IMG/VR virus record: IMGVR_UViG_3300045988_056849 | Source: a virus | Reading direction: 5' to 3' (one strand) | DNA: 64,000 nt | The notes under the pieces: model-generated | Databases searched by the model: none | Told to the model about the DNA's origin: nothing | The model's input: only the letters and a program-made list of their open reading frames with translations | Part shown: piece by piece, positions 15,698 through 57,823 of the stretch | How positions within the stretch are numbered: the first letter of the stretch is position 1 | Layout of the letters: every line of letters begins with the position of its first letter | Made by a program: the position numbers and the translations under genes

Positions 15698-15707
15698 ACA
15701 GTTATAG
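15698..15707 (+). promoter_or_regulatory. ACAGTTATAG box, copy 1
   Basis: Exact 10-mer, 37 nt upstream of the HU gene ATG 15745. Flank AAACAGTTATAGTA. Confidence 0.6.
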
Positions 15708-15744
15708 TACCGTTACATTTTGTTAAATTTAATTGTAAAGAAAA

Positions 15745-16047
15745 ATGAAAAAGTATGAATTGGTAGCCGCAGTGGCTAAGGAAACTGGGATGACCCAGAC
15801 AGACGTGAACAAAGTAATCGACGCAATGTGTCCTGTAATCGTAAAGGCTTGCGTTGAGGATGGTGACGAAGTGAACCTGCCTACTCTTGGTAAGTTCAAA
15901 CAGAAGGTCAACCCTGCTCGCAAGGGCATCAATCCGTTGACCAAGAAACCGATGGATGTGCCTGAGAGTCATACGTTGAAGTTCACACCGACAACAACTA
16001 TCAAGAAGGTTATTCAGCCCAAAGCAGCAAAGAAAGCTAAAAAGTAA
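15745..16047 (+). CDS. HU/IHF-family DNA-binding protein
   Basis: MKKYELVAAVAKETGMTQTDVNKVIDAM...LPTLGKFKQKVNPARKGINPLTKKPMDVPESHTLKFTP (beta-arm RxGxNP). Confidence 0.85.
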   Translation: MKKYELVAAVAKETGMTQTDVNKVIDAMCPVIVKACVEDGDEVNLPTLGKFKQKVNPARKGINPLTKKPMDVPESHTLKFTPTTTIKKVIQPKAAKKAKK

Positions 16048-16072
16048 GCGAATACCCGAATGACGAGAGAAT

Positions 16073-16113
16073 GGAGATTGGCGAATAATGTTTGCTTTTC
16101 TCCGTTTCTTTTT
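16073..16113 (+). terminator. weak terminator-like hairpin
   Basis: GGAGA (16073-16077) pairs with TCTCC (16099-16103) across a large loop, then GTTTCTTTTT. Confidence 0.3.
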
Positions 16114-16155
16114 CTCCCAAAGTTTATAATTACAATTTAACAAAAGCAGAATGTA

Positions 16156-16446
16156 ATGAAAGCAATAACAACGAAAGAAAAGTTACCAAAGTTTCTTGTA
16201 GTGAATGCCGAAGCTCCGAGCAAGCCTTGGAATAAGTATTTGCTGAAACCTTACGAGAAAGGTGAAATTGTGAAAGTCGCTCCGTTTGAAGAACAAGTAT
16301 CTCACCCCAGCGTTGGTTCAACTCCTGAACAGTTCCGCAAAAGATACGTTGTTATATATCGTAAAGATGAAGAAGGCAAATGGACGCTGAAATATACACA
16401 AGGATGGGAATCATTTGATTTATTAACAACAATAAAAAAGAAGTAG
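16156..16446 (+). CDS. hypothetical protein (96 aa)
   Basis: ORF in operon context. Confidence 0.5.
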   Translation: MKAITTKEKLPKFLVVNAEAPSKPWNKYLLKPYEKGEIVKVAPFEEQVSHPSVGSTPEQFRKRYVVIYRKDEEGKWTLKYTQGWESFDLLTTIKKK

Positions 16447-16447
16447 T

Positions 16448-17083: not shown

Positions 17084-17104
17084 AATTCTTTGATTGTCTA
17101 TATA

Positions 17105-17145
17105 GAAACCGTGCGGCAAGGTTAATAACTAAGTCACACGGTTTC
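17105..17145 (+). other. 9-bp perfect hairpin (no T-tract)
   Basis: GAAACCGTG (17105-17113) pairs with CACGGTTTC (17137-17145). Confidence 0.45.
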
Positions 17146-17163
17146 AACATTTAATAACAAGAT

Positions 17164-17826: not shown

Positions 17827-17848
17827 TTTTCACAAAGTTTATAATAAT

Positions 17849-18169
17849 ATGAGCAAAGAAACGTTTGATTTAGCTTCTAATTTAGAACAAGCATTTAATA
17901 GTATTGGAACATCAATGATGTCTTTGAATTTTGCTTCAAAATTGCTTGCTTATGTAGCAGTAATGGGCGGAGGCAATGAAGCAGTTACTATGCACGAAGG
18001 TTTGAACGCTGGTATAGCAATAGCTCAAAGGAAGTTCAATATATTTGGCGGTGAAGTTCCAGATTATAAAGGAATTATTTGCATCAGAGCTTTCATTAAT
18101 GAGCTTGAAAGGAAGGGTGATAAAACTCCTTGGTTAAAGGAAATATATGACCGTTATAATTTGAAATAA
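17849..18169 (+). CDS. hypothetical protein (106 aa)
   Basis: First ATG after the exonuclease stop. Confidence 0.5.
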   Translation: MSKETFDLASNLEQAFNSIGTSMMSLNFASKLLAYVAVMGGGNEAVTMHEGLNAGIAIAQRKFNIFGGEVPDYKGIICIRAFINELERKGDKTPWLKEIYDRYNLK

Positions 18170-18179
18170 ACAGTTATAG
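18170..18179 (+). promoter_or_regulatory. ACAGTTATAG box, copy 2
   Basis: Exact 10-mer starting right after stop 18169, 26 nt upstream of ATG 18206. Flank AAACAGTTATAGTA. Confidence 0.6.
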
Positions 18180-18205: not shown

Positions 18206-18964
18206 ATGTCTGAAACAAATGAAACTCCGAAACGTAAACGGAGAACAAAAGAAGAGATTGAAGCTGCTAAGGCAGCAGGCACTTACAAGCCGAGAACAAG
18301 AAAGAAAGTTGAGGAAGCTCCGAAAGAGGAAACAGCGAAAGCTCCTGAGGAGTTCCAAGCAAAACCTACGAAACTGCCTGCTGAACAATCCGTTCTGATT
18401 ATGGCTTGCCTTCAGCCTGAGGTTTCAAAGAGAGCTATTGAAGCGGCAAAGGAGAAAGGCGTTGAGGTTGTAATTCTTGAAGACCGAGTAATTCACGACT
18501 ACTTGAGCGTGCGTGATAAGGATAACAAAGAAGCAAGAAGTTTGGGAGACTTCCTGAATGATACTTCCAATCGTTTGCATGCTGAAGACCAATGCGTGAA
18601 GTTATGGATGATACTTACGAAGGGTCAACCGATTGAGAACGCAGAGCAACGTGTATTCACGAGAACGGAGGTTGTTAAGTCAACTAATCTATCTCACGGA
18701 AAAGCTGACCAAGTCTTTCAGTTACTCCGAGCCTTCGGAATGTTACGTTTCACGAAAGGAACGCACGAGTTTGTTCTCAACTTCAGCAAGAAGAAATGTC
18801 ACGATACTATCAAAACAGAAGTTCTTGCGATGTGCAAAGCGTTGAGCAACGACATTCTCCGTTACAAGGCATCAATTGAAGCCGATACTGAATTGACGAA
18901 AGAGCAAAAAGATGAAATGTATAAAGAGTTACAAAGAGCCGTTGACGAGACAATCGAGTATTAA
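18206..18964 (+). CDS. hypothetical basic-N-terminus protein upstream of terL
   Basis: KR-rich N-terminus PKRKRRTKEEIEAAKAAGTYKPRTRKK. Its position directly upstream of the large terminase makes a small-terminase role possible, but this is not supported by any motif. Confidence 0.55.
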   Translation: MSETNETPKRKRRTKEEIEAAKAAGTYKPRTRKKVEEAPKEETAKAPEEFQAKPTKLPAEQSVLIMACLQPEVSKRAIEAAKEKGVEVVILEDRVIHDYLSVRDKDNKEARSLGDFLNDTSNRLHAEDQCVKLWMILTKGQPIENAEQRVFTRTEVVKSTNLSHGKADQVFQLLRAFGMLRFTKGTHEFVLNFSKKKCHDTIKTEVLAMCKALSNDILRYKASIEADTELTKEQKDEMYKELQRAVDETIEY

Positions 18965-24310: not shown

Positions 24311-24316
24311 ACAAAA

Positions 24317-24370
24317 GTTAAATTTAGCAAAGTTTCTTATAAAAAGTTTTGCGGTTATAAAATAACTTCG
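24317..24370 (+). promoter_or_regulatory. promoter P3 (shortened variant of the P1/P2/P4 family)
   Basis: GTTAAATTTAGCAAAG box, TTTG (24348-24351) and TAACTTCG (24363-24370), but only an 11-nt spacer. The downstream TTCGTACCAGATAA is shared with P2. Confidence 0.4.
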
Positions 24371-24396
24371 TACCAGATAATCAATATAACAAAGTC

Positions 24397-25878
24397 ATGG
24401 GAGCATTTATACCAAGTAAATATCAAAGAGCCGTTTACATCTATATTGAGAAGGGTAAAGGCAATGCGGTTATAGACGCAGTAGCAGGTTCAGGAAAATC
24501 TACAACGATTGTGAATGCGTTGAAACTTATTCCGAAGAACAAGCGAGTATTGTTTTTGGCGTTCAACAAGGCAATCGTAGAGGAACTGAAAATCAAAGTA
24601 GGTAATCTCAACAATGTAGATATTAAAACGCTACATAGTTTGGGAGCTTCGGCAACTATGCGAGCTTTGAACTCTCAGCTTCAGGTTGATAAATATACGG
24701 CTTGGGTTAATAATGGTATCAAATACTCTTCCCTTTCTCCGAAGTCAGACTTGTTACCTGAACAGATGTCAACTTGGAAAGGCAATATCTTGAAGCTCAT
24801 TGACCTTGGTAGAGTAAACTTGGTTAAGTCCGAGAAGGAATTGGAAGAGCTTGCTTGGAAACATAATATTGATTTGGAAGATAACGAGGTTGATATTGCT
24901 ATTAAGGGTATCAATTGGGGCGAAAGGGAAACGCAAGTCATAGACTTCACAGACATGATATACTTCCCGAACGTCAAACAGATAAAGATGTTCCAATACG
25001 ATTGGGTATTCATAGACGAGTGTCAGGACTTGAACGCTGCCCAAAGAAACTTGTTCTTGAAATGCTTGAAACCTAATGGTAGATTTGTAGCTGTTGGAGA
25101 CCCACGTCAGGCAATCTATGGTTTTGCTGGAGCGGACGTTGAAAGTTTCAACCTTTTGAAGAGACTTCCGCACACCGTGAAACTTCCTTTATCCGTATGT
25201 TACCGTTGCGATGGAGATATAATCGGAATGGCCAAAGAGATAGTGCCTCAGATAGAAGCAAGAGCAGGTGCGCCAGCAGGTGTAGTTAGTCGGGAGAGCG
25301 TTATGGCGGATGTTAAGGATGGTGATATGATACTTTGTAGGGTTTCAGCTCCGTTGGTTAAATTGTGTATGCAATATATCGGGAGAGGGGTGAAAGCGTA
25401 TGTGAAAGGAAGGGATATTGGAACCAATCTTATTAACATGATAAAGAAAACCAATCGCAAGCAGATTAAGGACGTAATGGAGAGACTTGAAAGGGAATTA
25501 TCACGGATAATCGGAAAGGTGGTAGCAAAGCAGGGATGCACCGAAGCTGAAGCGAAGGAACATGAAATGTATAAGAACTACGAGGACAAGTTGAGAGCAA
25601 TCGAAGTTCTTTCAGAAGGGTTGGCAACTTCCCAAGAAGTGATTGACCGCATAGACATGATTTTCTCCGATGATAACAAGAACGGTATTTGTTTGAGTAC
25701 GATACACAAGTCAAAAGGTTTAGAGAGCGACCGAGTATTCATCATATGTGAAGATAAGCTCTATTTGAAATATTGTATGACCGTTCCGTGGATGGCGGAA
25801 CAAGAACGCAACCTTGTCTATGTTGCGATAACAAGAGCCAAGCACTTTTTAGGATATATTCAAGACTTTGTAGCATAA
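24397..25878 (+). CDS. UvrD/PcrA-like superfamily 1 DNA helicase (paralog 2)
   Basis: AVAGSGKST, VFIDECQDL, VGDPRQAIYGFAGAD, LSVCYRC, STIHKSKGLE, YVAITRAKH. Collinear with 1204..2691. Confidence 0.85.
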   Translation: MGAFIPSKYQRAVYIYIEKGKGNAVIDAVAGSGKSTTIVNALKLIPKNKRVLFLAFNKAIVEELKIKVGNLNNVDIKTLHSLGASATMRALNSQLQVDKYTAWVNNGIKYSSLSPKSDLLPEQMSTWKGNILKLIDLGRVNLVKSEKELEELAWKHNIDLEDNEVDIAIKGINWGERETQVIDFTDMIYFPNVKQIKMFQYDWVFIDECQDLNAAQRNLFLKCLKPNGRFVAVGDPRQAIYGFAGADVESFNLLKRLPHTVKLPLSVCYRCDGDIIGMAKEIVPQIEARAGAPAGVVSRESVMADVKDGDMILCRVSAPLVKLCMQYIGRGVKAYVKGRDIGTNLINMIKKTNRKQIKDVMERLERELSRIIGKVVAKQGCTEAEAKEHEMYKNYEDKLRAIEVLSEGLATSQEVIDRIDMIFSDDNKNGICLSTIHKSKGLESDRVFIICEDKLYLKYCMTVPWMAEQERNLVYVAITRAKHFLGYIQDFVA

Positions 25879-25953
25879 AAGTTAAATATTGCCCAAAAAT
25901 AGAAAAAAGTTTGGAAATTATTTTTGCCGTTTGAAAAATACTCCGTACCTTCG
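25875..25953 (+). promoter_or_regulatory. Bacteroidota-type promoter P4
   Basis: 24-mer identical to P1 (25875-25898). -33 TTTG (25923-25926), 19-nt spacer, -7 TACCTTCG (25946-25953). Confidence 0.65.
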
Positions 25954-26004
25954 TAGTGTAATTGTAAATAAAGATTGTAAATCAAACAGTAAATTTCAAA
26001 GAAT

Positions 26005-26808: not shown

Positions 26809-26850
26809 TATGGGGGTTGTCCTTCGGGATGGCTCCCATAGTTATTTTAC
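26809..26850 (+). terminator. terminator / conserved hairpin element A
   Basis: TATGGGGG (26809-26816) pairs with CTCCCATA (26833-26840), around an inner CC-UUCG-GG hairpin, then GTTATTTT. The CTCCCATAGTTATT 14-mer (26833-26846) recurs at 29547-29560. Confidence 0.6.
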
Positions 26851-26885: not shown

Positions 26886-27650
26886 ATGTCGGGAATAATT
26901 TACAAATTCACTATAATGAGCAGTTTTAGATATTTCGGTCATAAGCCGTTCTATGTAGGACAATTTATGCGGGATGTTTCAAAAGAACAATTTTTGAGAA
27001 ATGATTGTTTTGTATACGATGGTAGCGGTAAGACTTGGGAAAGATTTTGTAAAGGACTCAAAAGAAAGTTTCCAACCTGCTGGCGTAAACTAATCAAACG
27101 AGAAGTCTTGTTTTATTCAGAGAATTGTTCGCAGAAGGCTCTTGATAGAATGGAAGAGTATTTCATCAAACATGAGAAGTCTCATTACTCATACGAGGTA
27201 GGCGGTTGCAACATACTATGGGGAACTGCTAACAAGTTCGGTTCTGGAAGTCCTATGAAAGACCCAATGATTGCGGCTAAAGTTACTAAGCAATTACGAG
27301 GAAGAAGAGGAGCAAAAAGGTCAGAAGAAGGTAAGCGAAACATGTCTATTGCTGCTAAAAGGTCATGGGAGAATGCAAATAAGCGCAGAAGGTTAATTTC
27401 AAAGTCTATGTCTTCATATATGCAGAACGGAGGAAAGGAACATTTGTCCAGAGTTAAGAAAGGAAGAAAGTTCAGCGATGAACATAGAAGGAACATTGCT
27501 TTGAATCATGCTGATATTAGCGGTAAAAATCATCCTTGTTACGGTAAGCATTTCAAATGGATAACAAATGGTTTAGTGGAACAAAGATTGGATGAAGGCA
27601 AATCAATTCCTGAAGGTTTTCAATACGGTAGAATTAAATACAAGAAGTAA
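26886..27650 (+). CDS. free-standing GIY-YIG homing endonuclease with NUMOD3-like repeats
   Basis: GIIYKFT...KPFYVGQ (GIY...YVG) N-terminal motif. C-terminal repeats GSGSPMKDP, RGRRGAKRSEEGKRNMS, KGRKFSDEHRRNI, SGKNHPCYGK. Confidence 0.65.
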   Translation: MSGIIYKFTIMSSFRYFGHKPFYVGQFMRDVSKEQFLRNDCFVYDGSGKTWERFCKGLKRKFPTCWRKLIKREVLFYSENCSQKALDRMEEYFIKHEKSHYSYEVGGCNILWGTANKFGSGSPMKDPMIAAKVTKQLRGRRGAKRSEEGKRNMSIAAKRSWENANKRRRLISKSMSSYMQNGGKEHLSRVKKGRKFSDEHRRNIALNHADISGKNHPCYGKHFKWITNGLVEQRLDEGKSIPEGFQYGRIKYKK

Positions 27651-28624
27651 TGAATATAATTTTTGACGGAAACTACGCATTTCACAAATGCTTCAGCGTT
27701 TTTTCTCAATATTACAAAGGTCAAGATATGTCAGACGTATTGAGCGACCCAGAGAAGCAGCAAGTTTTACTGCGTAAATGCATCATAGACATGTGTGCAG
27801 CAATCAAACGGTTTAAGGATATCAAACGAGTGGCATTTGTGATAGATAGCTCTTCATGGCGTTACAGTATCTACGATGATTACAAGTACGCTCTTACGAG
27901 AGTCAGAGACCCATTTTACAAGCATTTCCTGACCGTATTAGATATGTTTGAGGCTCTTCTTCGGAGAAAAGGACTAATCGTCAGTAGAGTCATGGGAGCA
28001 GAGGGGGATGACCTTCTGTACGTATGGGGCTTGTACTTTGGATATTGTTTGGACGAAGAGCTGGTAATAATTACTGGTGATTCCGATATTCGACAAATCA
28101 TGAACAAAAACGTTTCCTTGTTCAACAATAACTCAAAGAACTTGAAGATGTATTGTATCCCAGAGAAGGAAGTGTTTTGGAACGAGTATCTTGAAACTGA
28201 TGTTCAGGTCATACCTACGAAGCCATTTGAGGTTTTGTTATATAAGGTCATTATGGGAGACACTTCTGATAACATTCCTAAGCTCAAAGCAGGGTTTGGG
28301 CCAAAAGCCTTCGACAAGTTCATTGAATCAATCAGTCCTTATCACGAGCCGAAAGATATTGACCTTGTACCGATGGCTCAATGGATTGCCAAACGTTTCT
28401 CCGAGTTTACGAAAATGAAAGAGGAGGAAGTATTGGGACAAGTTTTATTCAATCTGAAGATGACGTGGTTGAACTTGTCTGTATATAACAATACCGATTA
28501 TCAGACTAAGAACGGCAAGAGCCTTCTTGAAAATATGCTTGACGATGTAAACGACCAAAAGAATAAATACAGTTATAGTAAAGCATACACGTTAGAAGAT
28601 TTTTATGGTATGGCAATCAAATAA
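27650..28624 (+). CDS. 5'-3' exonuclease / flap endonuclease (T4 RNase H / FEN family)
   Basis: IIFDGNYAFHK, VIDSSSWR, AEGDDLL, ITGDSDIRQI, MGDTSDNIPKLKAGFGPKAFDKF. Confidence 0.8.
   Translation: MNIIFDGNYAFHKCFSVFSQYYKGQDMSDVLSDPEKQQVLLRKCIIDMCAAIKRFKDIKRVAFVIDSSSWRYSIYDDYKYALTRVRDPFYKHFLTVLDMFEALLRRKGLIVSRVMGAEGDDLLYVWGLYFGYCLDEELVIITGDSDIRQIMNKNVSLFNNNSKNLKMYCIPEKEVFWNEYLETDVQVIPTKPFEVLLYKVIMGDTSDNIPKLKAGFGPKAFDKFIESISPYHEPKDIDLVPMAQWIAKRFSEFTKMKEEEVLGQVLFNLKMTWLNLSVYNNTDYQTKNGKSLLENMLDDVNDQKNKYSYSKAYTLEDFYGMAIK
28569..28578 (+). promoter_or_regulatory. ACAGTTATAG box, copy 3 (inside the 3' end of the FEN gene)
   Basis: Exact 10-mer, 58 nt upstream of ATG 28637. Flank ATACAGTTATAGTA. Confidence 0.5.
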
Positions 28625-28636
28625 ACATTGATAAAT

Positions 28637-28813
28637 ATGAAAAAGAAAACAATCATCTGGGTTGCAATTATTGTAGCCGTAGTTATCGGAGCGTTGGTGT
28701 ATATGCACTACACTCCTGTTTGGGTATCAATCTCAAACGTTGTGAGTTTAGCAATCGGTGTCGTTGTCGGCTGGATTGCTCATGTTTTGTATAACAAATA
28801 TATCAAAGAGTAA
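28637..28813 (+). CDS. small membrane protein (2 TM)
   Basis: IIWVAIIVAVVIGALVYM and VVSLAIGVVVGWIAHVL. Confidence 0.5.
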   Translation: MKKKTIIWVAIIVAVVIGALVYMHYTPVWVSISNVVSLAIGVVVGWIAHVLYNKYIKE

Positions 28814-29483: not shown

Positions 29484-29560
29484 TGGGGAGGTGTACTGCG
29501 ACTGGAGAGGGAATTGAGTTGTGAAACTTGGTTCCCTTTCATTTTTCTCCCATAGTTATT
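29484..29560 (+). terminator. terminator / conserved hairpin element B
   Basis: GGGAATTGAGTT (29509-29520) pairs with AACTTGGTTCCC (29525-29536): GTGA loop, 12 bp including G:U, then TTTCATTTTT. The outer GGGAG/CTCCC pairing ends in CTCCCATAGTTATT (29547-29560). Confidence 0.6.
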
Positions 29561-29577
29561 AAGTAAAATGTTACACT

Positions 29578-32132: not shown

Positions 32133-32465
32133 ATGCCGATTTCAAAGAAAATAAAAGAACTCAAGGAGCCATTGGAGGTAGATTTACAGCTGATGGCTTC
32201 TGAGCTTGATACTTCGGTTAAGAACATGAAGTATTTGTCGAAAGATATGATGTCCGATGCTACGTCAATTGATGCGTTCGATGCGTTGGTTGAGGACATA
32301 GAAAGAGGAGAAGGAAGCGAGGTGACAACGTTTGATGACAATACCATTTTATATGAGTATTTGGACGAAGCTGTTGTTGTACATAACGTTCTTGGCGTTC
32401 GTTACGTTCTATTTGATAGTATGGTGACGCAGAAGATAGAAAACAAGTTGGACAGTTATAGATAG
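32133..32465 (+). CDS. hypothetical acidic protein (110 aa)
   Basis: Starts 4 nt after the methyltransferase stop. Confidence 0.55.
   Translation: MPISKKIKELKEPLEVDLQLMASELDTSVKNMKYLSKDMMSDATSIDAFDALVEDIERGEGSEVTTFDDNTILYEYLDEAVVVHNVLGVRYVLFDSMVTQKIENKLDSYR
32452..32461 (+). promoter_or_regulatory. ACAGTTATAG box, copy 4
   Basis: Exact 10-mer overlapping the last codons of 32133..32465, 34 nt upstream of ATG 32496. Confidence 0.55.
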
Positions 32466-32495: not shown

Positions 32496-33110
32496 ATGAG
32501 AACAATTGTCATTTTCAAAACGGCTACACCCGATGAAAGGATTGTCTTGCGTACTGACTCAATGTATGACGACTACGAGAGTGTGTTCACCGTCATGACC
32601 GTTGAAGGAAGTATCGAAGGAGTAATCAATGAATTCAAGGGCGGTAGCATTATCAGCCTTTCTACAATATCAAGATTTGTTGCTAACAATACTGGTATTG
32701 AAGCAGTGGCTATGTCTCCTGACGATGCTAAGTTGGATGTTGCCACAGCAACACCTAAGTTCCTATCAATTGATGTCTTTCCGATATTCAATGAAACGTC
32801 TTATCGTGAACATGTTTCTCCTGAATATCAGGAACGGTATTCATACGAGGACTCAAAAGACTCATTGCCTTGGTTGGCTATTAAGTCTGTGAAGGCGGTG
32901 TTAGCTACTCCGTTTGACTTGGAAATATCACACAACGGCAGTGCTTGTACTTTCGGAGGTAATTCTGAGAATGTTGGAACAATATCAGACTTCCAGAACG
33001 TAATGTTTGCTTGTAAGGATGATTTGGGCGTAGATGACCCGAAAGGCATTTGGCAGCTCAAGTTCACCATGAACGGCATTACCGATATTCGTGAAGTGGT
33101 AATTTCCTAA
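32496..33110 (+). CDS. hypothetical protein (204 aa), tandem paralog A
   Basis: The N-terminus MRTIVIFKTATPDERIVLRTD resembles that of the next ORF. Confidence 0.6.
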   Translation: MRTIVIFKTATPDERIVLRTDSMYDDYESVFTVMTVEGSIEGVINEFKGGSIISLSTISRFVANNTGIEAVAMSPDDAKLDVATATPKFLSIDVFPIFNETSYREHVSPEYQERYSYEDSKDSLPWLAIKSVKAVLATPFDLEISHNGSACTFGGNSENVGTISDFQNVMFACKDDLGVDDPKGIWQLKFTMNGITDIREVVIS

Positions 33111-33647: not shown

Positions 33648-33671
33648 GAAACAAGAAGTCAAATGAAGAAA

Positions 33672-33700
33672 GGAGGGCATTGAAAAATGTTCTCCTTTTT
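33672..33700 (+). terminator. rho-independent terminator
   Basis: GGAGGGCAT (33672-33680) pairs with ATGTTCTCC (33687-33695): 9 bp including 2 G:U, loop TGAAAA, then TTTTT. Confidence 0.7.
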
Positions 33701-33717
33701 ATTTGTTTACACATTTT

Positions 33718-33727
33718 ACAGTTATAG
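33718..33727 (+). promoter_or_regulatory. ACAGTTATAG box, copy 5
   Basis: Exact 10-mer, 33 nt upstream of the portal ATG 33761 and 17 nt after the terminator. Confidence 0.6.
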
Positions 33728-33760: not shown

Positions 33761-35494
33761 ATGGGTAATTCATATGCTAAACAGTTAGATGCCATTGCTC
33801 TTGCAGAAGCGAAGCTGAAGGCAAAAAGGTTTAGGACACTTGAGAAAGCTCTAAGGTCAGACTCACCAGAGGATATGATAAAGGCTACTCAGGTGTTCAA
33901 CCAAATTCAGCCAAAAGTGGAGCAAAATACAAAGGCATTTTTCATTGACCCATTGGAGTTCAATTCCAATTTAGGGTACAAAGATAAGCCGTTTTCATTG
34001 ACGTACACTACGTTGAAGAGAATGTCGAAGACACCTATCATAAATTCAATTATCAAAACAAGAAAGAATCAAGTAGCAGACTTCGCAGAGCCTCAAGAAA
34101 ACAAGTATTCAACTGGCTTCGTTATCCGAAAGAAACCGAAATTTGGAATTGAACAAAAGATGGATAACAAAGACCGAAAGATTGCGTATGCTATTACTGA
34201 ATTTATCTTGAAGGGCGGTAATGTTAGTCAATGGGAGCATGACGACTTCGATACGTTTATCAGAAAGATTGTTGATGACTCTTTGACTTACGACCAATTA
34301 ACTTTCGAGTGTATTCGCAACCGAAGAGGACAATTGGAGAGTTTCATGGCTACTGATGCCGCAACTTTCCGAATGGCTGATTCATACTTTGATAAGGATT
34401 ATGATAATGTTTTCTTCCAAAGAAACGGAGCGAATGTATGGCAAGATAGGAACGATTATGGGCCAAAGGTTTATGGCTATTATCCTGCTTATGTTCAGGT
34501 GTATCAGAATGTCAAGGTCAATGAGTTCTATCCTTGGGAGCTTTGTTTTGGAGTTCGCAATCCTTCTACTTCAATATACTCAAATGGGTATGGTTGTTCC
34601 GAGCTTGAAGAGCTTATCAACGTTGTAACATCTATGCTTTGGGGAGATGAATACAATAGACGTTTCTTCAGTCAAGGTTCAGCTCCGAAAGGTTTATTGC
34701 GTATTAAGGGAACAAACAACGAAGCAGCACTTCAGCAATTCAAACAACAGTGGCAGTCCATGATTACAGGAGTAATGCAGTCTTGGAAAACTCCTGTCGT
34801 GGAAGCGGACGTGGATTGGATAGACCTTCAGAAGAACAACCGTGATATGGAGTATAGTTCTTGGATGGAATATCTTATCAAACTATCTTGTGCCATATAT
34901 TCAATTGACCCTTCCGAGATAGGATGGGACATCAGCCGTTCTTCGGGGAACGGAGGATTGTTTGAAGGAAGTCAGGAACAACGCCTGAAACATTCCAAAG
35001 ACAAGGGTTTGTATCCACTTCTGAAATTCCTTCAGAGGAAAATCAACAAATATATCATTGAGCAAATCAATCCTGATTTTGAACTTGTATTCGTAGGTTT
35101 GAACGGCTTGACTATCGAAGAAGAGCTTGATATGGACATCAAGAAAGTAGGCAGCTTCATGACCGTAAACGAAGCACGTGAGAAATACGAGATGAAACCG
35201 CTTGAGTTCGGAGACGTACCGACCAATGCTACTCTTATTCAGAACAAGAATGCGGAGATGATGGCTAAACAAGGTGGTCAAGGAATGGAGATGGATGAGA
35301 ACGGAAACATCAAACCGAGTTCCGAGAAGAAAGGAGAGGAGCCTGACGCAGAAGAGGAAGATGAGGAGCAAAATCCTTTTGACTTGTATGCCGAAGAAAA
35401 TGACGAGGAGGACACTAATAAGGGTGGACTGAGAGAAACGTTTGTAAAAGCATTTGATAACTTTCTAAATAACGAAGAAAATGGAAGTAACTAA
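33761..35494 (+). CDS. portal protein
   Basis: 577 aa with an acidic C-terminal tail. It heads the morphogenesis block and lies upstream of a MuF-like gene. Called on size and synteny plus general resemblance to portals, not on a diagnostic motif. Confidence 0.6.
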   Translation: MGNSYAKQLDAIALAEAKLKAKRFRTLEKALRSDSPEDMIKATQVFNQIQPKVEQNTKAFFIDPLEFNSNLGYKDKPFSLTYTTLKRMSKTPIINSIIKTRKNQVADFAEPQENKYSTGFVIRKKPKFGIEQKMDNKDRKIAYAITEFILKGGNVSQWEHDDFDTFIRKIVDDSLTYDQLTFECIRNRRGQLESFMATDAATFRMADSYFDKDYDNVFFQRNGANVWQDRNDYGPKVYGYYPAYVQVYQNVKVNEFYPWELCFGVRNPSTSIYSNGYGCSELEELINVVTSMLWGDEYNRRFFSQGSAPKGLLRIKGTNNEAALQQFKQQWQSMITGVMQSWKTPVVEADVDWIDLQKNNRDMEYSSWMEYLIKLSCAIYSIDPSEIGWDISRSSGNGGLFEGSQEQRLKHSKDKGLYPLLKFLQRKINKYIIEQINPDFELVFVGLNGLTIEEELDMDIKKVGSFMTVNEAREKYEMKPLEFGDVPTNATLIQNKNAEMMAKQGGQGMEMDENGNIKPSSEKKGEEPDAEEEDEEQNPFDLYAEENDEEDTNKGGLRETFVKAFDNFLNNEENGSN

Positions 35495-35741: not shown

Positions 35742-37628
35742 ATGGCAGGGAATACTAAAAATTTGGGGCAGGTTGCTGGTGTATATATCGGCAACACTCC
35801 GCCTGAAAACATAATTCTGATTTGGTATGATAATACTCCGAGTCAGATGCGACATAAGATATACGACCCAGGATTGAGTCAGTGGGTAGTTCTTGACCAG
35901 AACGTTATCTCATTGATTACTTATTCCGAGTTGGTAAACATCGCAAAGAATGTCGGTCTGTCTATCGGTCAGTATTTCCAAATCAAGGATAAAGGAAATG
36001 CTTTGGCTCTTGCTATCACAACGACCAAAGTGCAGTATGATGATGAATTGGGTAATATCCTGATTGACGATTTGGGTACCAATATTCAATATCACGTAAC
36101 TTCTTCCAATCTTTTGGTAGATGACGTTGCGGGTGTATTCGATACGGTAAACAAAAAGCTGGTATTCCAATTCAAAGAAATGGTTCCCGACTTTACTGCT
36201 GATGATTACATCATGGGTAAGGTTCAGCGTAACAACGTTTGGAGCCTTGCTAAGTATCGGTTGTCTTCTTTCTTATCGAAGGTAACTGGTAACTCAATCA
36301 GTTGGAATGGAGGCTTCTTCTTTAATTTCGGTGATGCTTTGAAAGCTCAGCTGGATAAGAAAGGAGGAGTTGTTGCCAAAGACACCTACGATACGGATAT
36401 GCAGAAGGTCAATCAAGACATAGCAAACGTAGGTAAAGCAAATCAACAGATTATAGATAATGCTAACAAAGCAATAACTGATGCAACGTCTGATACGGCT
36501 ATCTACGCCAAAAAGTCTCCTGCGTTAGAAACAGGAGGAGAGCCGACCGATGCAGCAAAAGGAGACAGCTTGTTAACAATCTTGTCTAAGTTTCAGAGAT
36601 ACATCACACGTTTCAAGTATGCAACTGGTATTCGAGTATCTCAAGACTTCACTGATGCCGTACAACCAGAATACGTCAATAACAATGATACTGTTGACTC
36701 TGCGCTCAGAAAGATACAGTACTGGTTAAAGAATGCTGGTACGGGCAGTAAACTATCACCTGATTGGACTCCGAAGGACTATGCAGGAACCATAGCCGAT
36801 GTAGCAGGTGGAGATAGTCTTGACGAAGCATTTGCGAAGGCTATCGGAAAACTGAATCAGATTGGTACTATATCGAACGGTCAAGTGCGTTCAAAGGCAA
36901 CTACTTCGGGCGGTACAAGTAGAACTATTTTCAATTTAGCTTCTGCAATTCTTTCTTTTTATAGAGATGGTACAAGTGGACATAATGTTTCTCTGAGTTC
37001 ATCTTCTGGTTTGAGTATAAAGGATTCAAATAATTATGGATTGGTAGCTAATGGAGATGGTTTAGATTTTCAATCACAAACACAGCAAATTTTTGATATT
37101 CCTGCTTATGAAAAAAGCGGTTTAAGTAATGTTTACGGAGGAGCTTCTGCTTTGTATAGAGGTAGAGCGATTTCAACAGCACCTGGATATGCTTCATTAG
37201 GTATTATTTCCGCTTTATCAGCTGTTTGTAATTGGAACGGTTTAACTCCTTCGGGGGGGTATCAAGTATTTGATGCTTATTTTGCTAATTTCAAAGCTGG
37301 AGGGCTGTCTCTTGGACTTATTCATTTATCGTCCACTGACCTTTACTTGGATACCGATTGTTCTTTTGTTAGCTGCACAAACAGCGAAAATAAAAACGTA
37401 TTTTTGCCAGCTGACCCGCATGATGGACAATTGATTATTGTAAATCAAGTGAACTCTGCTAATATTGCGGTACATGGAAATGGACGTAGAATTTGTGATA
37501 ATACTAATGTAGATTCAGTGAATATTGGTTCTGCAAGAAGCTGTGGAATTTTTGTATTTAATCCTAATATTGCTACTGACCCTGGTTATAAATGGGGAAT
37601 GTGGGTATTTGAACGTTGGAACAGATAA
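35742..37628 (+). CDS. tail fibre / receptor-binding-like protein
   Basis: N-terminus NLGQVAGVYIGNTPPENIILIWYDNTP...WVVLD resembles fibre N-termini. Long Gly/Ser/Asn-rich beta-type C-terminal region. Confidence 0.45.
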   Translation: MAGNTKNLGQVAGVYIGNTPPENIILIWYDNTPSQMRHKIYDPGLSQWVVLDQNVISLITYSELVNIAKNVGLSIGQYFQIKDKGNALALAITTTKVQYDDELGNILIDDLGTNIQYHVTSSNLLVDDVAGVFDTVNKKLVFQFKEMVPDFTADDYIMGKVQRNNVWSLAKYRLSSFLSKVTGNSISWNGGFFFNFGDALKAQLDKKGGVVAKDTYDTDMQKVNQDIANVGKANQQIIDNANKAITDATSDTAIYAKKSPALETGGEPTDAAKGDSLLTILSKFQRYITRFKYATGIRVSQDFTDAVQPEYVNNNDTVDSALRKIQYWLKNAGTGSKLSPDWTPKDYAGTIADVAGGDSLDEAFAKAIGKLNQIGTISNGQVRSKATTSGGTSRTIFNLASAILSFYRDGTSGHNVSLSSSSGLSIKDSNNYGLVANGDGLDFQSQTQQIFDIPAYEKSGLSNVYGGASALYRGRAISTAPGYASLGIISALSAVCNWNGLTPSGGYQVFDAYFANFKAGGLSLGLIHLSSTDLYLDTDCSFVSCTNSENKNVFLPADPHDGQLIIVNQVNSANIAVHGNGRRICDNTNVDSVNIGSARSCGIFVFNPNIATDPGYKWGMWVFERWNR

Positions 37629-41165: not shown

Positions 41166-41843
41166 ATGAAAACTGAAAAATTGTTACTCATCCAGCCGCA
41201 TAGTGATGATATTCTCTTTTGTTGTTCTCATCTGCTGTTCCTTCCTCAATACGAGGTTCAGGTGCTGACCGTAGAGAATGACCCAAAGAGAATAGCGGAG
41301 GATGAAAAATTGTTTGATTTTCTCAATATTCCGTTCCATCATCTTGAATTAGATTTTCATGATGAAAGTTATTACGAGTTCCATAAGAATTACAAAGAAG
41401 TAACGGTGGAAGCAACGTATAAACATTTGAATGAATACTTCGGGAGGGAAACGCTGAACGAGATTGAGGAAACGCTTGTAAATTGGGTTAGAAAGTTCTT
41501 GAAAAAGAACAAAGGGTACACGGTGGTAGCTCCTTGGGGAGTTGGTCACCCATTTCATCTTTTCGTTCGGGAGACTTTACAAGGAGCGTTGAGTTACATG
41601 GAGTATTATCGGGAGTTCCCTCACTCCTATAAAAGACGTTCTCAACCTCAAGTAGAGAAACAAAAGCAAGAATACACTCTGAAACGTTCCGTAACAGTTG
41701 AGGAGTTTCATGAAGTGAAGTGGAAACTTGCTTCCAAATTCTATCGTTCTCAATCAGGTTTACAGTTCTACGAACAGGGTTATATTAAGAAACAGCTGCC
41801 CGAAGAGATATATGTGAGGGAAGCGGATGAATTACCATTTTGA
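41166..41843 (+). CDS. PIG-L/LmbE-family de-N-acetylase
   Basis: LLLIQPHSDDILF (AHPDD-type motif), RIAEDEKLFDFLNIPFHHLELDFHDES, WGVGHPFHLF (HxxH). Confidence 0.65.
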   Translation: MKTEKLLLIQPHSDDILFCCSHLLFLPQYEVQVLTVENDPKRIAEDEKLFDFLNIPFHHLELDFHDESYYEFHKNYKEVTVEATYKHLNEYFGRETLNEIEETLVNWVRKFLKKNKGYTVVAPWGVGHPFHLFVRETLQGALSYMEYYREFPHSYKRRSQPQVEKQKQEYTLKRSVTVEEFHEVKWKLASKFYRSQSGLQFYEQGYIKKQLPEEIYVREADELPF

Positions 41844-41844
41844 T

Positions 41845-43296
41845 ATGAAGATATTTATTGCTGATTTTCAGATAGCGAAATATGGCGGTATTGTAGAATA
41901 TGTTGCCAGTATGCTCAAAGCGTTCCGAGATTTGGGACACGAAGTAGATGTTGCTCAAATGACTCCTGCTTCTACTACCCAGAACGCTTATAACAAGAAA
42001 GTGAAAGAATTTGAAAGCGGAGAACATCAACGCAAGATTAAGTTCCATTCTCAGGCAGGAGGTTACGAGAAAGATGAAGTAACAGGTTATTGGCGCAATA
42101 ACTATTATGGATATTTCTTGCCTCCAAGTAACCGTATCGGAGTATATGAGAAGAATGCGGTTGAGAGGTGGAAGGAGCTGGTGAAGGATGCTGATATAAT
42201 TCTTTGGAATTTCATGCCCACGAAAAGTTCTGCTTGGAATAAGAAGGGCGTGGAGTTCGATTTTTGGCATAAGTTCTTTGACCTTCCTTCTTCGATTAAA
42301 CAAGTGTTCTTGGTACACGATGCTTATTTCAATGTAAGAGCTTCCAATATATCGGCTCTGAAAGATAAGATAATGTTTATGGCTTGTGCTCATTTAGCTG
42401 CTTATCAATGCTGTTCTGAAATAGGTATTCCGAGAAGTTTGCTATTGAATCCACGATACCTACCCAGCGGAGCTAAGATGACCGTGAAGATGATGAATAA
42501 ACGCAAGGAGGACTTTTTTGCTGCTCATATGTTTAAGTCTATGAAGCATATGGAGGAGCTGATTGCTGCCGTTCCGTATATTCAGAAGGGAGAGGAGGAA
42601 CGTTTCAAAGTAAAGATTGCTGGGACAGGCATAGAATATAACTATATGACCAGCGAGACGAAAACAAAGAGTAACTATATGTGTACTACGAAGCGTGACC
42701 CAGACCTTCCGAAGAAACTTGACGGCAAACTTTCTCTTTGGGATAGAGCCGAGAAGTTTGGAATGGAGTACATGGGTCAGATGTCGGGCGGTGAAGTTAT
42801 AGATACTTTGAGAAATACGAAGTTTGCTATTGACCCATCTTGGGCTGAACATTATGCACGTTATTGTCGTACCCATATAAACGGCTTTATTATCGAAGCG
42901 ATGTTATGCGGTGCTTATCCTGTTTTGCGTGATTATAGAGGACTGGCGAAGGTGGAAGGAAAGGAAATATATGACCCACTATTCGAGAACGTCAGAGCAA
43001 TCATTATTCCGTGGGATGCTACTCCGAAAGAATTTGCTGAGGCTTTGAAAAAGGCTGCTAAAATGTCTCCTGCTAAATTCTTGAAAGATACAAAGTACAA
43101 CTTTGAGTTAGTACACGAATTGTTTAATGCTACGAAGAATGCCGAAGAGATAATCAGACTGGTTAAAGGAGGAAGAAAGCTGGTAAGGAAAGAACTTGAA
43201 AAAGGCAAAGACTCACCGAATGTTAAGAAGATAACTCATGAAATCATGGAAGAGTTTTATCATATAGAACTTCCAATTGAGTGGGAAACGGATTGA
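41845..43296 (+). CDS. GT-B fold (GT4-like) glycosyltransferase
   Basis: N-terminus MKIFIADFQIAKYGGIVEYVASMLKAFRDLGHEVDV. C-terminal sugar-donor region NGFIIEAMLCGAYPVLRD. Start at ATG 41845, 2 nt after the upstream stop. Confidence 0.65.
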   Translation: MKIFIADFQIAKYGGIVEYVASMLKAFRDLGHEVDVAQMTPASTTQNAYNKKVKEFESGEHQRKIKFHSQAGGYEKDEVTGYWRNNYYGYFLPPSNRIGVYEKNAVERWKELVKDADIILWNFMPTKSSAWNKKGVEFDFWHKFFDLPSSIKQVFLVHDAYFNVRASNISALKDKIMFMACAHLAAYQCCSEIGIPRSLLLNPRYLPSGAKMTVKMMNKRKEDFFAAHMFKSMKHMEELIAAVPYIQKGEEERFKVKIAGTGIEYNYMTSETKTKSNYMCTTKRDPDLPKKLDGKLSLWDRAEKFGMEYMGQMSGGEVIDTLRNTKFAIDPSWAEHYARYCRTHINGFIIEAMLCGAYPVLRDYRGLAKVEGKEIYDPLFENVRAIIIPWDATPKEFAEALKKAAKMSPAKFLKDTKYNFELVHELFNATKNAEEIIRLVKGGRKLVRKELEKGKDSPNVKKITHEIMEEFYHIELPIEWETD

Positions 43297-43350
43297 CGCA
43301 GTTATTATCTTTATCATAATGTTAATCATGTAAAATAAACATAATGAATT

Positions 43351-54911: not shown

Positions 54912-55627
54912 GCGGAATACTTTTACCAGAAATTGTTATCTATAACACTTTGGAAAGCATAGTGAAATTGTTGCGTGATGATTTACAAGAAAACGTAGCA
55001 GATGACAAAAAAACTATATTATACAAGATACTGGGAGTGGATGAAGAAGGCAAGCCGATTAAGATGAATTTGTATAATTACTTTGTCCAAGCAAAGAAGA
55101 TGATTTTGACACCTCAAAACTTATCTGTTAATTTCGGATATAACCAAGAGGTTGCTAAAATCATATCAATGCACATTCTCCTTCCTTCAGAACAGGGTGA
55201 AGCAGCGATTGGAGAAGATGAAGGATATTTGGAGGATGATATATTGGATGAAGAAGGAAAGAAAACAGCAACTCAACAATACTTTACTCAGACATATAAT
55301 TGTACGTATCAAATCATGATTACAAGCAATAACTCTTCTGAAGTGAACGTAGTATATAATGTAATGAAAAGTATGCTGCTTATGCTTGTTCCTCATTTGG
55401 AGCTGATGGGTATTCGCATTCCTTCGTTATCGGGGAACGATATAATGATGCAAGACGACCTTACCCCAGTTCCTTTGTTTCATAAAGTTCTCAATTTAAC
55501 GTTCAAGTATGAACATAACGTTCCACAACTTGTAGTTCAGGAGGTAGCAAAGAAGTTCTATTTCCAAATGAGAATGATTGATTACAACGATGATACTTCA
55601 TCAAGCTCAAGTATAGATAAGGAGTAA
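54908..55627 (+). CDS. virion structural protein (neck/tail-completion region, by position)
   Basis: ATGA overlap. Position only. Confidence 0.5.
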   Translation: MSGILLPEIVIYNTLESIVKLLRDDLQENVADDKKTILYKILGVDEEGKPIKMNLYNYFVQAKKMILTPQNLSVNFGYNQEVAKIISMHILLPSEQGEAAIGEDEGYLEDDILDEEGKKTATQQYFTQTYNCTYQIMITSNNSSEVNVVYNVMKSMLLMLVPHLELMGIRIPSLSGNDIMMQDDLTPVPLFHKVLNLTFKYEHNVPQLVVQEVAKKFYFQMRMIDYNDDTSSSSSIDKE

Positions 55628-55659
55628 AATTTGAAATAAATTCATATAAACAAAAGATT

Positions 55660-57282
55660 ATGGCAACAGTAGTTAATTTTCATGGCAAGAACTACATTGA
55701 ACCTGGTTCGTATGCTGCTACCGTTTATAATCCAACGTCAGTCGTAAACGTTGCCGAATTTGGTAATGTTATGATTATCGACACTGGGTTGGCGATGAAT
55801 GGCTCATACGAATACGCAGGAGGTTCAGGAGTTCAGGGTGAACTGGCACAAGGCTTGAAGTCTGTGTACGAGTTTACAAACTATGAGGACTTCTTGGCTT
55901 TCATGGGAGGAGGTCTGGTTGGCGATATAGCTAACAAGATTTTCACGCCTTTGGACGGGTCAGCAGGTGCTCCTAAGTTGTATTATGTCCGTGCCGCCAA
56001 AACGACTTGCGCAACTCTTACAGCTACAATATCAGGCTCCAATGCTTTGGTACTGAAATGTAAGAACGAGGGCATTGTTGGTAACGGAGTAAAAGTTGAT
56101 GATGTTTTGAAAGTAGGTTATGGAGCTCAGATTGTAGCTGGCGAAACTACTGATACTTTCAAACTTCAAGTTTTCCGTGGTTCCTTTATGGGAGTGGACG
56201 ATGCGGGTGAAGCCTTCGGAGCGAAGAGCGAAGCTGATGCAGTTCCTAACCTTATTGCAGAATCAAGTGACCTTACTACTCTTCAGGAGTTGTACGATTG
56301 GGCGAGGTCAAACAAGCAGATGCTTGCTAACTTCGTTGTAAGTATGACTGGTGATGGAGAAACCGAGCTTGCTGCTGTAGCTTTGACTTTGGCTACTGGA
56401 GGTACAACCGAGTATATGGGCGGTACGGAGTACGCAGATGTGTTAGAAGCAATCGCAGAGTTGGATGTTACGTTCTTCCTGTGCACTAACTTGAATGCTG
56501 CTAACGGCAAAGGAGTTGATGCTGCAACGAACGGTAAATTGTTTACATTCCTGAAACAGACTGCTAAGTTCACTGAATTTATGGTAGTGCCAGGCGGTGA
56601 GGACGATACCGACTTGTTTGGAGACACTAACAGCTCCGAGTCAATTGCTAAGTATTTCAATTCAGGTCAGGTTGTTTGCGTACACGGTGCTCCTATCGTA
56701 ACGAGAAAAGACCAGAACGGTACAAAACAGCTTCACACTATCTACCTTGCTGCGGCAATCGTAGGTTTGAACGCAGGAATGGCTGCTCAAACTCCGCTTA
56801 CTTTCAAGCGTGTCGGTTATCAGTCTTTTGCTTACGACTTGAAGAAACGAGAAAGAGAGAGAGCATTACAAGCTGGTATCATGCACGTTCGCAACGTATC
56901 GGGTTATTGGTGCGTCAACCAAGGCATTACGACCTTGCTGGATAATAAGAAAACAATTGCCGATGACGGTCAGTCGTTTGAGTTATCCGTAGAGCTTATC
57001 AAGGCTCAGTTGAACAAAGAGCTTATTTTGGAAGGACAAACGAGGTTTACAGGACAAACGGCAGCACAGGCTTCTCCGCAGTCTGTTAAGAACTTCACCG
57101 AAACAAAACTTGCTTCTTTGGTAGCATATCCTGGCAATGATAACTTGCTTATCAGTTGGAAGAATGTAAAGGTTGTTGCTAAGAACAGCGACTACTTTAT
57201 CACTTACGACTTCGTGCCGAACGTACCTGTGAACAAGACGTTCTTCATTGGGAACATCTTGGATTTTTCAGTAGAAGTGTAA
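55660..57282 (+). CDS. contractile tail sheath protein
   Basis: 540 aa, immediately upstream of a 166-aa tube-sized gene, a chaperone pair and the tape measure. Called on synteny and size. Confidence 0.6.
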   Translation: MATVVNFHGKNYIEPGSYAATVYNPTSVVNVAEFGNVMIIDTGLAMNGSYEYAGGSGVQGELAQGLKSVYEFTNYEDFLAFMGGGLVGDIANKIFTPLDGSAGAPKLYYVRAAKTTCATLTATISGSNALVLKCKNEGIVGNGVKVDDVLKVGYGAQIVAGETTDTFKLQVFRGSFMGVDDAGEAFGAKSEADAVPNLIAESSDLTTLQELYDWARSNKQMLANFVVSMTGDGETELAAVALTLATGGTTEYMGGTEYADVLEAIAELDVTFFLCTNLNAANGKGVDAATNGKLFTFLKQTAKFTEFMVVPGGEDDTDLFGDTNSSESIAKYFNSGQVVCVHGAPIVTRKDQNGTKQLHTIYLAAAIVGLNAGMAAQTPLTFKRVGYQSFAYDLKKRERERALQAGIMHVRNVSGYWCVNQGITTLLDNKKTIADDGQSFELSVELIKAQLNKELILEGQTRFTGQTAAQASPQSVKNFTETKLASLVAYPGNDNLLISWKNVKVVAKNSDYFITYDFVPNVPVNKTFFIGNILDFSVEV

Positions 57283-57302
57283 CAAATAAAAGATAACATA
57301 CT

Positions 57303-57803
57303 ATGGCAAAGAATGAAAAAGTGATGACTGCCCCTTTGGCTATCATCCAGATAAATTCAGTTACCGTGGGTAAAATGAAGAACGTTCGCATCACTGAGAA
57401 TATCCGAAGAGGACGTGTGACGGGCGTAGGACGTTTGAACCCAGAGGAGCTGCCTGCCTTGGAATGGAGTGGTTCTTTGTTTTGTTCTTCTTATACTATC
57501 AACTTCAACCTTTTGGCTAACAAAATGAAGAAGGGAGCGTTCAGAAACGCTGGTACAGTAGAAGAATGGGCAAACGCTATTCTGCTTCAGGAAGATGGGC
57601 TTGAAATTGCTATCCTTCGTAAAGTGAAGGACGGAGCTATTGACAACGAAACTGGTTTGGTTTCTACTAAATATGAGACTTTTGCGAAAACAGTTGGAGC
57701 GTTCATGACACGTGAAGGCTTCGATATTCAAGAAGGTCAGATTTCAGGACGTGATACTGAATTCGAGTATTTGGAACCAATTCTGTACAACGGGATTGTT
57801 TAA
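57303..57803 (+). CDS. tail tube protein
   Basis: 166 aa, between the sheath and chaperone genes. Followed by a terminator. Confidence 0.55.
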   Translation: MAKNEKVMTAPLAIIQINSVTVGKMKNVRITENIRRGRVTGVGRLNPEELPALEWSGSLFCSSYTINFNLLANKMKKGAFRNAGTVEEWANAILLQEDGLEIAILRKVKDGAIDNETGLVSTKYETFAKTVGAFMTREGFDIQEGQISGRDTEFEYLEPILYNGIV

Positions 57804-57813
57804 GCCAAAATAA

Positions 57814-57823
57814 ACAGTTATAG
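57814..57823 (+). promoter_or_regulatory. ACAGTTATAG box, copy 7
   Basis: Exact 10-mer, 61 nt upstream of ATG 57885, immediately followed by a hairpin. Flank AAACAGTTATAGGAAGGT, as in copy 6. Confidence 0.6.

Follow-up and report, generated by a model that had tools for sequence, protein, structure and literature searches.

The stretch of DNA analysed here comes from the IMG/VR virus record IMGVR_UViG_3300045988_056849 and is 64,000 nucleotides (nt) long (hereafter the window); it contains a recurrent, strand-specific 10-mer, ACAGTTATAG (hereafter the box), whose possible role as a phage promoter is the subject of this work. The G+C content is ~40% across the window and every gene lies on the + strand, with replication, recombination and nucleotide-metabolism genes interspersed with packaging, head and tail genes. 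Matches of the window in IMG/VR were uncultured gut-metagenome contigs of 89-101 kb, including dozens of 90-100 kb, and a tail sheath gene is present; the phage is a Bacteroidota-type myophage of roughly 90-100 kb. A megablast search of INPHARED with 12 kb found no near cultured relative. Closest among cultured phages are the Bacteroides phages DAC/SJC03 (35% identity for terL and 45% for the capsid), followed in capsid identity by Chryseobacterium phage MA9V-3 (40%) and, distantly, by SPO1- and K-like myophages (~35%, SPO1/Herelleviridae-like). The gene names given in the first-pass annotation were secured by family matches for HU (15745-16047; Pfam, 1.9e-23), portal (33761-35494; 9.8e-19) and the head maturation protease (PHROG, 4.7e-34); the Terminase_6C match of terL and the holin-family match of the small membrane gene were weak and below cut-off, and the "tail chaperone" open reading frame (ORF) 57885-58283 had no family match, its name fitting its location after the tail sheath gene. 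The box copies, three variant boxes and two major structural genes are listed below, with distances running from the end of the box to the next ATG and both ORFs and distances being counted on an ATG-only gene map.

15698..15707, + strand: box copy 1, in the spacer ahead of the HU-like gene 15745-16047, 37 nt from its ATG
18170..18179, + strand: box copy 2, in the spacer ahead of ORF 18206-18964 (the gene before terL), 26 nt from its ATG
28569..28578, + strand: box copy 3, within the 3' end of the exonuclease-like gene 27650-28624, 58 nt before the ATG at 28637
32452..32461, + strand: box copy 4, in the last codons of ORF 32133-32465, 34 nt before ORF 32496-33110
33718..33727, + strand: box copy 5, downstream of a predicted intrinsic terminator, 33 nt before the portal gene 33761-35494
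48814..48823, + strand: box copy 6, before the head protease/scaffold gene (start at TTG 48848 or, 48 nt past the box, at ATG 48872), which is followed by the capsid gene
57814..57823, + strand: box copy 7, 61 nt before ORF 57885-58283 and past the tail sheath and tube-like genes
7801..7809, + strand: variant box CAAATATAA, intergenic, 32 nt before ORF 7842-9074
43299..43307, + strand: variant box CAGTTATTA, intergenic, 43 nt before ORF 43351-45318
55608..55616, + strand: variant box CAAGTATAG, 43 nt before the tail sheath gene
50410-51903, + strand: major capsid gene
55660-57282, + strand: tail sheath gene

The box occurs seven times on the + strand and never on the - strand, against 0.12 copies expected from dinucleotide-preserving shuffles, none of 100 of which reached seven; the positions and the chance expectation of about 0.1 reported in the first-pass annotation were thus borne out, as was its spacing of 26-61 nt to the start codons. 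Its statement that all copies lie at gene boundaries has to be corrected for copies 3 and 4, both being inside the 3' ends of upstream ORFs and not in spacers. At copy 3 the small, holin-like ORF as listed (28628-28813) begins at a TTG, 49 nt past the box. ACAGTTATAG is the joint most frequent 10-mer in the window and the sole one at the top other than a purine-rich coding repeat, and its one-mismatch neighbours contribute little. A relaxed form of the core was found 13 times on the + strand of the window and not at all on the - strand. Exact copies are restricted to 15.7-57.8 kb of the window, and an additional 19 kb of genome yielded just four relaxed copies on the + strand and one on the - strand. 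An eighth copy of the 9-mer CCAGTTATAGG lies at 20484, deep within terL. The similar flanks described earlier (AAACAGTTATAGTA and ATACAGTTATAGTA, and GG(G)AAGGT followed by a hairpin at copies 6 and 7) and the related variants (CCCATAGTTATT past hairpins near 26838 and 29552, and GCAGTTATTA at 43298) are all present. Weaker box-like words also follow terminator hairpins, namely ACAAAGTTATTAAA, CCAAAGTTTATAAT, CCCATAGTTATT and CCCATAGTTATTAAG (3885-3898, 16128-16141, 26838-26849 and 29552-29566, respectively), and may be weak or differently timed versions of the putative box promoter.

Comparison with relatives indicates that the functional core is a 9-nt element, of which ACAGTTATAG would be the strongest local form. 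In front of the portal gene the box keeps its place in relatives down to 62% portal identity, with diverging surroundings, where it reads CAGTTATAG, CAGTTATAA or CAATTATAG and is kept in lineages with no terminator ahead of it. It is likewise retained, with diverging flanks, upstream of the protease/scaffold gene and of the tail-assembly genes. Distant lineages carry CAACTATAA, CAAGTATAA or CAGATATAA, from which the general consensus C-A-R-n-T-A-T-A-R was derived. Raw counts of the strict core in 4.1 Mb of related loci were 306 on the + strand and 29 on the - strand, and non-redundant counts in ~3 Mb of related loci were 62 and 5 for CAGTTATAA, 52 and 2 for CAGTTATAG and 24 and 5 for CAATTATAG. 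Most non-redundant sites (143 of 173) lay no more than 100 nt upstream of the start of an ORF of at least 50 codons, mostly at 18-68 nt from the ATG, and an unbiased scan of 7-mers enriched upstream of genes ranked box words highest in the window and among the leading words in several lineages. The density of the box was 7.8-12.8 per 100 kb in the portal, capsid and tail flanks and 3.1 per 100 kb around the recombination/replication genes that neighbour a sigma-like gene described below, making it 2.5-4 times denser in structural modules than among replication genes. By comparison, in Bacteroides phage DAC16 and Chryseobacterium phage MA9V-3 the sampled stretches of structural genes showed no strand or position bias of the box, and the two phages were rejected as experimental proxies on that account.

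Copy 3 gave a view of the constraint on the box within coding sequence. It falls within the last 20 codons of the exonuclease-like gene, where ~12 lineages have the codons TAC-A[G/A]N-TAT-A[A/G]N; the two tyrosines flank S, K, N or R depending on the lineage, the synonymous bases of TAC (C) and TAT (T) are invariant, and adjacent Tyr, Thr and Leu codons vary freely, so that the only box position to drift is the fourth. These patterns indicate that selection at this site acts on the nucleotides and not on the protein. A box of its own, CCAGTTATAAG (L081:5396-5404, in a related contig), was also observed 18 nt before the start codon of a homing-endonuclease-like gene (L081:5423-6169) in the recombination module.

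The register of the consensus, C(-16) A(-15) R(-14) n(-13) TATARn (-12..-7), is the layout of the extended -10 promoter TGnTATAAT. Constraint within the box is weakest at the equivalent of -13, the TATA-R-n hexamer is invariant across sites, and the upstream determinant bases are A-R, as against the T-G of extended -10 promoters. No -35 element appeared in the sequence logo, in which no position from -30 to -10 rose above 0.21 bits, and the seven window copies share no sequence over that stretch. A TTTACAC word recurring upstream of the portal box was considered as a -35 element and rejected, being 11 nt from the hexamer and found at that site only. The predicted transcription start (+1) is at index 16, counting the C of the box as 0: a CA dinucleotide begins at index 14-16 in 86 of 172 sites, compared with six or fewer at flanking positions, which puts the A 7-9 nt past the box, and the same signal recurs at unrelated gene fronts, with TATAG-GATAT-TCAAA and TATAG-ATAA-TCAAA as typical forms. 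Of the seven window copies, all but one show CA at index 13-17 (three within the 14-16 peak), and copy 4 has TCAAA at the predicted start. Another short word, (A)TTGTAAA, was noticed 0-14 nt before the ATG of about nine genes (for example at 3907, 7823, 9078, 14687, 15732, 41159 and 57874); ATTGTAA occurs 16 times on the + strand and five times on the - strand, and relatives again have the word ahead of start codons (AAATTGTAAAAATG). Its role may be in translation initiation, Shine-Dalgarno sequences being largely unused in the host phylum.

Hairpins followed by a T-run lie beside three of the box copies.

~33670..33704, + strand: hairpin and T-run ahead of copy 5, ending ~15 nt before the box
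48824..48862, + strand: hairpin 48824-48857 and T-run, abutting copy 6
57824..57860, + strand: hairpin 57824-57854 and T-run, abutting copy 7

The 57-nt segment 33660-33716, ahead of copy 5, folds with a free energy (dG) of about -20 kcal/mol. An equivalent arrangement, with a hairpin and T-run 5-22 nt ahead of the box (two at 34-40 nt), was found in 27 of 192 non-redundant sites, a placement at which transcription would require a fresh promoter; in 52 of the 192, essentially orthologues of copies 6 and 7, the hairpin and T-run start 0-2 nt past the box. The hairpin at copy 7, the tail site, shows compensatory double changes in 12 of 12 pairs among 19 orthologues, its stem sequences varying by lineage (GGTAGTA, GGTGTACTG, AAGCACTAC, GAGTTACAC, AAGGGTGTAG and others), and at the protease site several distant orthologues (e.g. 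L141, L147 and L181) have different, still pairing stems. With a stem-loop, a T-run and a conserved structure, the hairpins past copies 6 and 7 have the sequence features of intrinsic (rho-independent) terminators. The first-pass annotation had taken a terminator-like hairpin downstream of these two copies as an argument against a simple promoter, an objection that loses its force with the predicted start inside the 5' arm of the hairpin: RNA initiated at the box would, therefore, lack most of the terminator stem. At copy 6, dG is -20.2 kcal/mol for the full hairpin and -2.4 kcal/mol if the RNA begins at the predicted +1 (A 48832, within TCA 48830-48832); at copy 7 the values are -17.7 kcal/mol and, for an RNA beginning at 57830, -6.6 kcal/mol, and the means over the 52 sites are -16.2 kcal/mol in full and -5.0 kcal/mol from index 16. 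Such a loss upon truncation would allow the module to terminate incoming transcripts while its own transcripts escape.

A second class of promoter-like sequence was found in four other intergenic regions as TTTGCCGTT-N14-TACCTTCGTA (TTTG-N19-TAccTTcG when counted to the TA), three of them matching the scan pattern (9792, 13121 and 25923) and the one at ~24348 being a close variant outside it.

9792-9824: host-type motif, preceding ORF 9872
13121-13153: host-type motif, preceding ORF 13180
24348-24372: close variant of the host-type motif, TTTGCGGTT...CTTCGTA, preceding helicase gene 24397
25923-25955: host-type motif, preceding ORF 26005

This motif agrees with the Bacteroides promoter layout of TTTG at -33 and TAnnTTTG at -7 (PMC7366714), and these sites are probably promoters for the host polymerase, used early. 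The -33/-7 pair is absent from all seven box regions, in agreement with the earlier observation that the box does not resemble the host-type promoter. The occurrence of two motifs in front of two gene sets suggests two temporal classes, and the box would be a promoter class distinct, within the same genome, from that of the Bacteroidota housekeeping sigma factor (sigma-ABfr). Two further features of these regions were noted. Three of the host-type promoters are preceded at ~30-50 nt by the word AAGTTAAAT(A/T)T(T/A)G(CCCAAAA), seen on the + strand alone (9739-9758, 24315-24330 and 25879-25898), which could be an operator or an UP-like element. The helicase gene at 24397-25878 has a paralogue ~23 kb away at 1132-2691, both matching phrog_1967 (expect value, E, of ~1e-93 each).

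The first-pass annotation had pointed to a sigma-like protein as a possible reader of the box.

229..855, + strand: candidate box reader, 208 amino acids, with a predicted sigma-70-family fold (sigma-2-like N-terminal half and C-terminal helical domain)

An AlphaFold model of this protein, built with 35 homologues, had a mean predicted local distance difference test score (pLDDT) of 82.6, and a Foldseek search of the PDB returned almost exclusively sigma factors, namely sigma-32 (8hkc_E, probability 1.0), sigma-S, SigI, sigma-B, WhiG and pro-sigma-K. Its N-terminal half superposes on region 2 of RpoS (5h6x_B) with a TMt of 0.71 and a root-mean-square deviation of 2.9 A over 107 columns. Named matches in BFVD were almost all phage sigma factors (best E 2.2e-4), and a sub-threshold Sigma70_r2 match was obtained for four of the 35 homologues (best E 0.0072) and none for the window protein itself. 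Every box-bearing lineage sampled had a homologue, with identities down to 40-49%, and tblastn detected none in cultured-phage records. We assign the ORF 229-855 product as a sigma factor at the level of fold only, with modelled sigma-2 and sigma-4 domain folds, and this fold together with its co-occurrence with the box within one clade makes it the likely candidate for the reader of the box. In the clade with 62% portal identity (loci L059-L080), G+C is higher (~50% around the sigma gene), the box reads CAACTATAA/CAATTATAG, with A instead of G at its third position, and the sigma homologue is 47-49% identical; as a single event, this is only suggestive of co-evolution between sigma and box.

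The neighbourhood of the sigma-like gene was read from L081:3828-9655, in a 97%-identical contig that extends 10 kb upstream of the left end of the window. The gene lies directly downstream of genes for a UvsX-like recombinase, SbcD-like and SbcC-like proteins and a Holliday-junction resolvase. We take this arrangement to resemble that of T4, where gene 55 lies near genes 46/47, and regard it as a lead only. The adjacent ORF 857-1198 (113 amino acids) was considered as a gp33-like co-activator and set aside with no supporting evidence, having no match in PHROGs or Pfam; neither it nor ORF 229-855 matched the gp55 or gp33 families in these databases.

Taken together, the orthologous conservation of the box, its strand and position bias, its concentration in structural modules and its extended -10-like layout with a start signal, along with the separate host-type promoter class and the sigma fold of ORF 229-855 co-occurring with the box, support its reading as a phage-specific "-10-only" middle/late promoter, a function that we infer with moderate confidence and that was among those proposed in the first-pass annotation. 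Most likely, it is the middle/late promoter code of a widespread clade of gut phages with its own sigma factor. In the mechanism that we propose, the host core RNA polymerase would bear a phage sigma-like subunit, most likely ORF 229-855, and this holoenzyme would recognize TATA-R-n as the -12 to -7 hexamer and C-A-R at -16 to -14, with no need of a -35 element, starting 7-9 nt past the last box base, preferably at the A of (T)CA. The box would drive the middle and late genes for DNA packaging, head, tail and lysis, and genes needed earlier would use the host-type promoter TTTG-N19-TAccTTcG, the two motifs marking two temporal classes. At what would be the two most insulated operon starts, those of the protease/capsid and tail-assembly operons, the box abuts a putative intrinsic terminator whose hairpin would halt polymerases coming from upstream, while RNA started from the box would begin in the 5' arm, be unable to fold the hairpin and read on. 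That box and hairpin form at these operons a compact (~45 nt) "terminate-and-restart" module, launching terminator-immune late transcripts, with a phage sigma reading a TATA-type -10 foreign to the Bacteroidota host and so giving the phage a private transcription code that might be used for orthogonal expression in Bacteroides, is offered more tentatively, as a possibility that we hold to be rather doubtful in its full form; the box-terminator module is nonetheless a plausible corollary and the more original one.

Several observations weigh against this reading. The site counts are phylogenetically non-independent and the hairpin class consists essentially of two orthologous site families, its tight 0-2 nt offset being partly an artefact of the stem finder, which runs A/G-T pairs on into the T-run. 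A start at the end of the box, giving a transcript with a stabilizing hairpin at its 5' terminus, would account just as well for the way the hairpin abuts the box, and copy 7 has no CA at the expected position. The sigma assignment is likewise exposed: ORF 229-855 had no significant match in Pfam, PHROGs, a phmmer search of the PDB or a PDB profile search, its hhalign comparison with an approximate E. coli RpoE sequence was negative, and the fold matches in the PDB had weak E-values (0.02-0.5) and low whole-chain TM-scores. Moreover, shared ancestry confounds the link between box and sigma gene, which are both features of one clade, and a sigma-4-like C-terminal domain in the model sits uneasily with the lack of a visible -35 element.

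The same observations were examined under other explanations. Were the box an RNA-level site, at which a sequence-specific endoribonuclease cuts polycistronic transcripts before selected genes and leaves a protective 5' hairpin at copies 6 and 7, its strict occurrence on the sense strand and always in 5' leaders would follow, co-oriented genes would have every box transcribed by read-through, and the covarying hairpin 0-2 nt past the box in 52 of 192 sites would have the geometry of a 5'-terminal stabilizing stem-loop after cleavage. We nevertheless consider processing unlikely, since 27 of 192 sites are just past strong terminators, where little read-through RNA is expected, the CA peak 7-9 nt downstream would have no role, the TATA core and the free -13-equivalent position would be unexplained and most sites have no conserved RNA structure; no Rfam family was found in the window at gathering thresholds, and no nuclease of such 9-nt specificity was identified among the ORFs scanned. 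A promoter with its start at the final purine of the box (T7-like or mitochondrial-type, ...TATA-R), served by a phage RNA polymerase or by a modified host enzyme that ignores intrinsic terminators, would assign the hairpin at copies 6 and 7 to transcript stabilization and seems to us improbable. T7 and SP6 promoters end in ..CACTATAG, and the box similarly ends in TATA-R, invariably with a purine as its last base, the hairpin starts 0-2 nt past the box and several large ORFs have no assigned function (35742-37628, 41827-43296, 43351-45318 and 45321-47693); on the other hand, the ~58 ORFs scanned with PHROGs or Pfam (most of the ~83 kb examined) gave no match to an RNA polymerase family, conservation spans 9 nt compared with 17-23 for T7-like promoters, the CA signal at +7-9 fits a sigma-type geometry and a sigma-like protein is encoded. 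Membership of the T7/SP6 family itself was rejected, with a resemblance limited to TATAG, 9-10 nt conserved and no RNA polymerase family among the ORFs scanned.

Binding of a phage regulator (a late activator, a repressor or an antiterminator loader) to the box, next to a weak host-sigma promoter and with the box not itself the -10, is likewise a poor prospect in our estimation. A 9-bp word kept at fixed positions before genes is compatible with it, as are the insecure sigma assignment of ORF 229-855 and the terminator just downstream at copies 6 and 7, which is where lambda-type Q-dependent late promoters have theirs. Most regulator sites, however, are dyads or direct repeats, whereas the box is asymmetric and strictly one-stranded; no host-type -7 TAnnTTTG lies beside the boxes, and the box itself has the composition of a -10 at the right spacing to the CA start. 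Site-specific single-strand nicks in virion DNA, as in T5-like phages, would account for a strand-specific motif recurring along the genome. Nick sites would have no reason to sit 18-68 nt before start codons, and the CA at a fixed distance, the abutting covarying RNA hairpins and the enrichment in structural modules would be unexplained; no nicking enzyme was identified and we hold this explanation to be very unlikely. Both the processing-site and the nick-site alternatives, which the first-pass annotation had raised, explain fewer observations than the promoter reading.

If the box is indeed such a promoter, it would, with its candidate dedicated sigma, allow temporal gene classes and operon boundaries to be annotated from sequence alone across the clade. 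These phages are common in human gut metagenomes; literature on the motif, on "Flandersviridae" or Bacteroides phage promoters and on phage sigma factors in Bacteroidota yielded no description of the element. Bacteroidota promoters are unlike those of other bacteria; a phage bringing a TATA-type -10 and its own sigma into such a host would exemplify transcriptional takeover and offer Bacteroides engineering a candidate orthogonal pair of promoter and sigma. The terminators that abut the box suggest, in addition, a way for a genome with all genes on one strand to insulate its late operons.

Among known systems, the closest functional analogues of the box appear, on the grounds of shared architecture, to be the -10-only phage promoters. 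Phages of the SPO1 type use sigma cascades to redirect the host core polymerase to later-class phage promoters. In phiEco32, the sigma factor gp36 likewise redirects the host core polymerase to phage-specific later-class promoters (PMC12276001). The promoters of both have -35 and -10 elements of unrelated sequence, and no sequence similarity was detected between ORF 229-855 and the sigma factors of SPO1-like phages or phiEco32. With the housekeeping promoters read by sigma-ABfr the box shares the presumed host and the position before genes, but it has neither the TTTG at -33 nor the TAnnTTTG.

Extended -10 promoters have no -35 element and rely on sigma domain 2, and in Thermus phage P23-45 promoters of this class serve the middle and late genes, those with -10 and -35 elements being shut off (PMC3950348). 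The box has in common with them, P23-45 included, a short upstream determinant, a free base, a TATA-type hexamer, no -35 element and a predicted start ~7 nt past the hexamer, but differs in having C-A-R in place of T-G and a TATA-R-n hexamer with no conserved final T. P23-45 employs the host sigma-A with the small appropriator gp39, whereas here a phage sigma-like protein is the candidate, in a Bacteroidota host whose own promoters are of a quite different type (PMC7366714). T4 late promoters consist of an 8-bp TATA box with no -35 element and are read by the divergent sigma gp55 (PMC2988020), together with gp33 and the gp45 clamp. Both systems have one AT-rich box of 8-9 bp at -10, nothing conserved at -35, tight retention at many late genes and a small divergent phage reader of the sigma family, which here is a candidate; the consensus CARnTATAR shares only the TATA core with that of T4, and the candidate reader has a C-terminal sigma-4-like domain that gp55 lacks. 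The box would not overturn current understanding but would extend the T4, P23-45 and SPO1 paradigm to a new host phylum.

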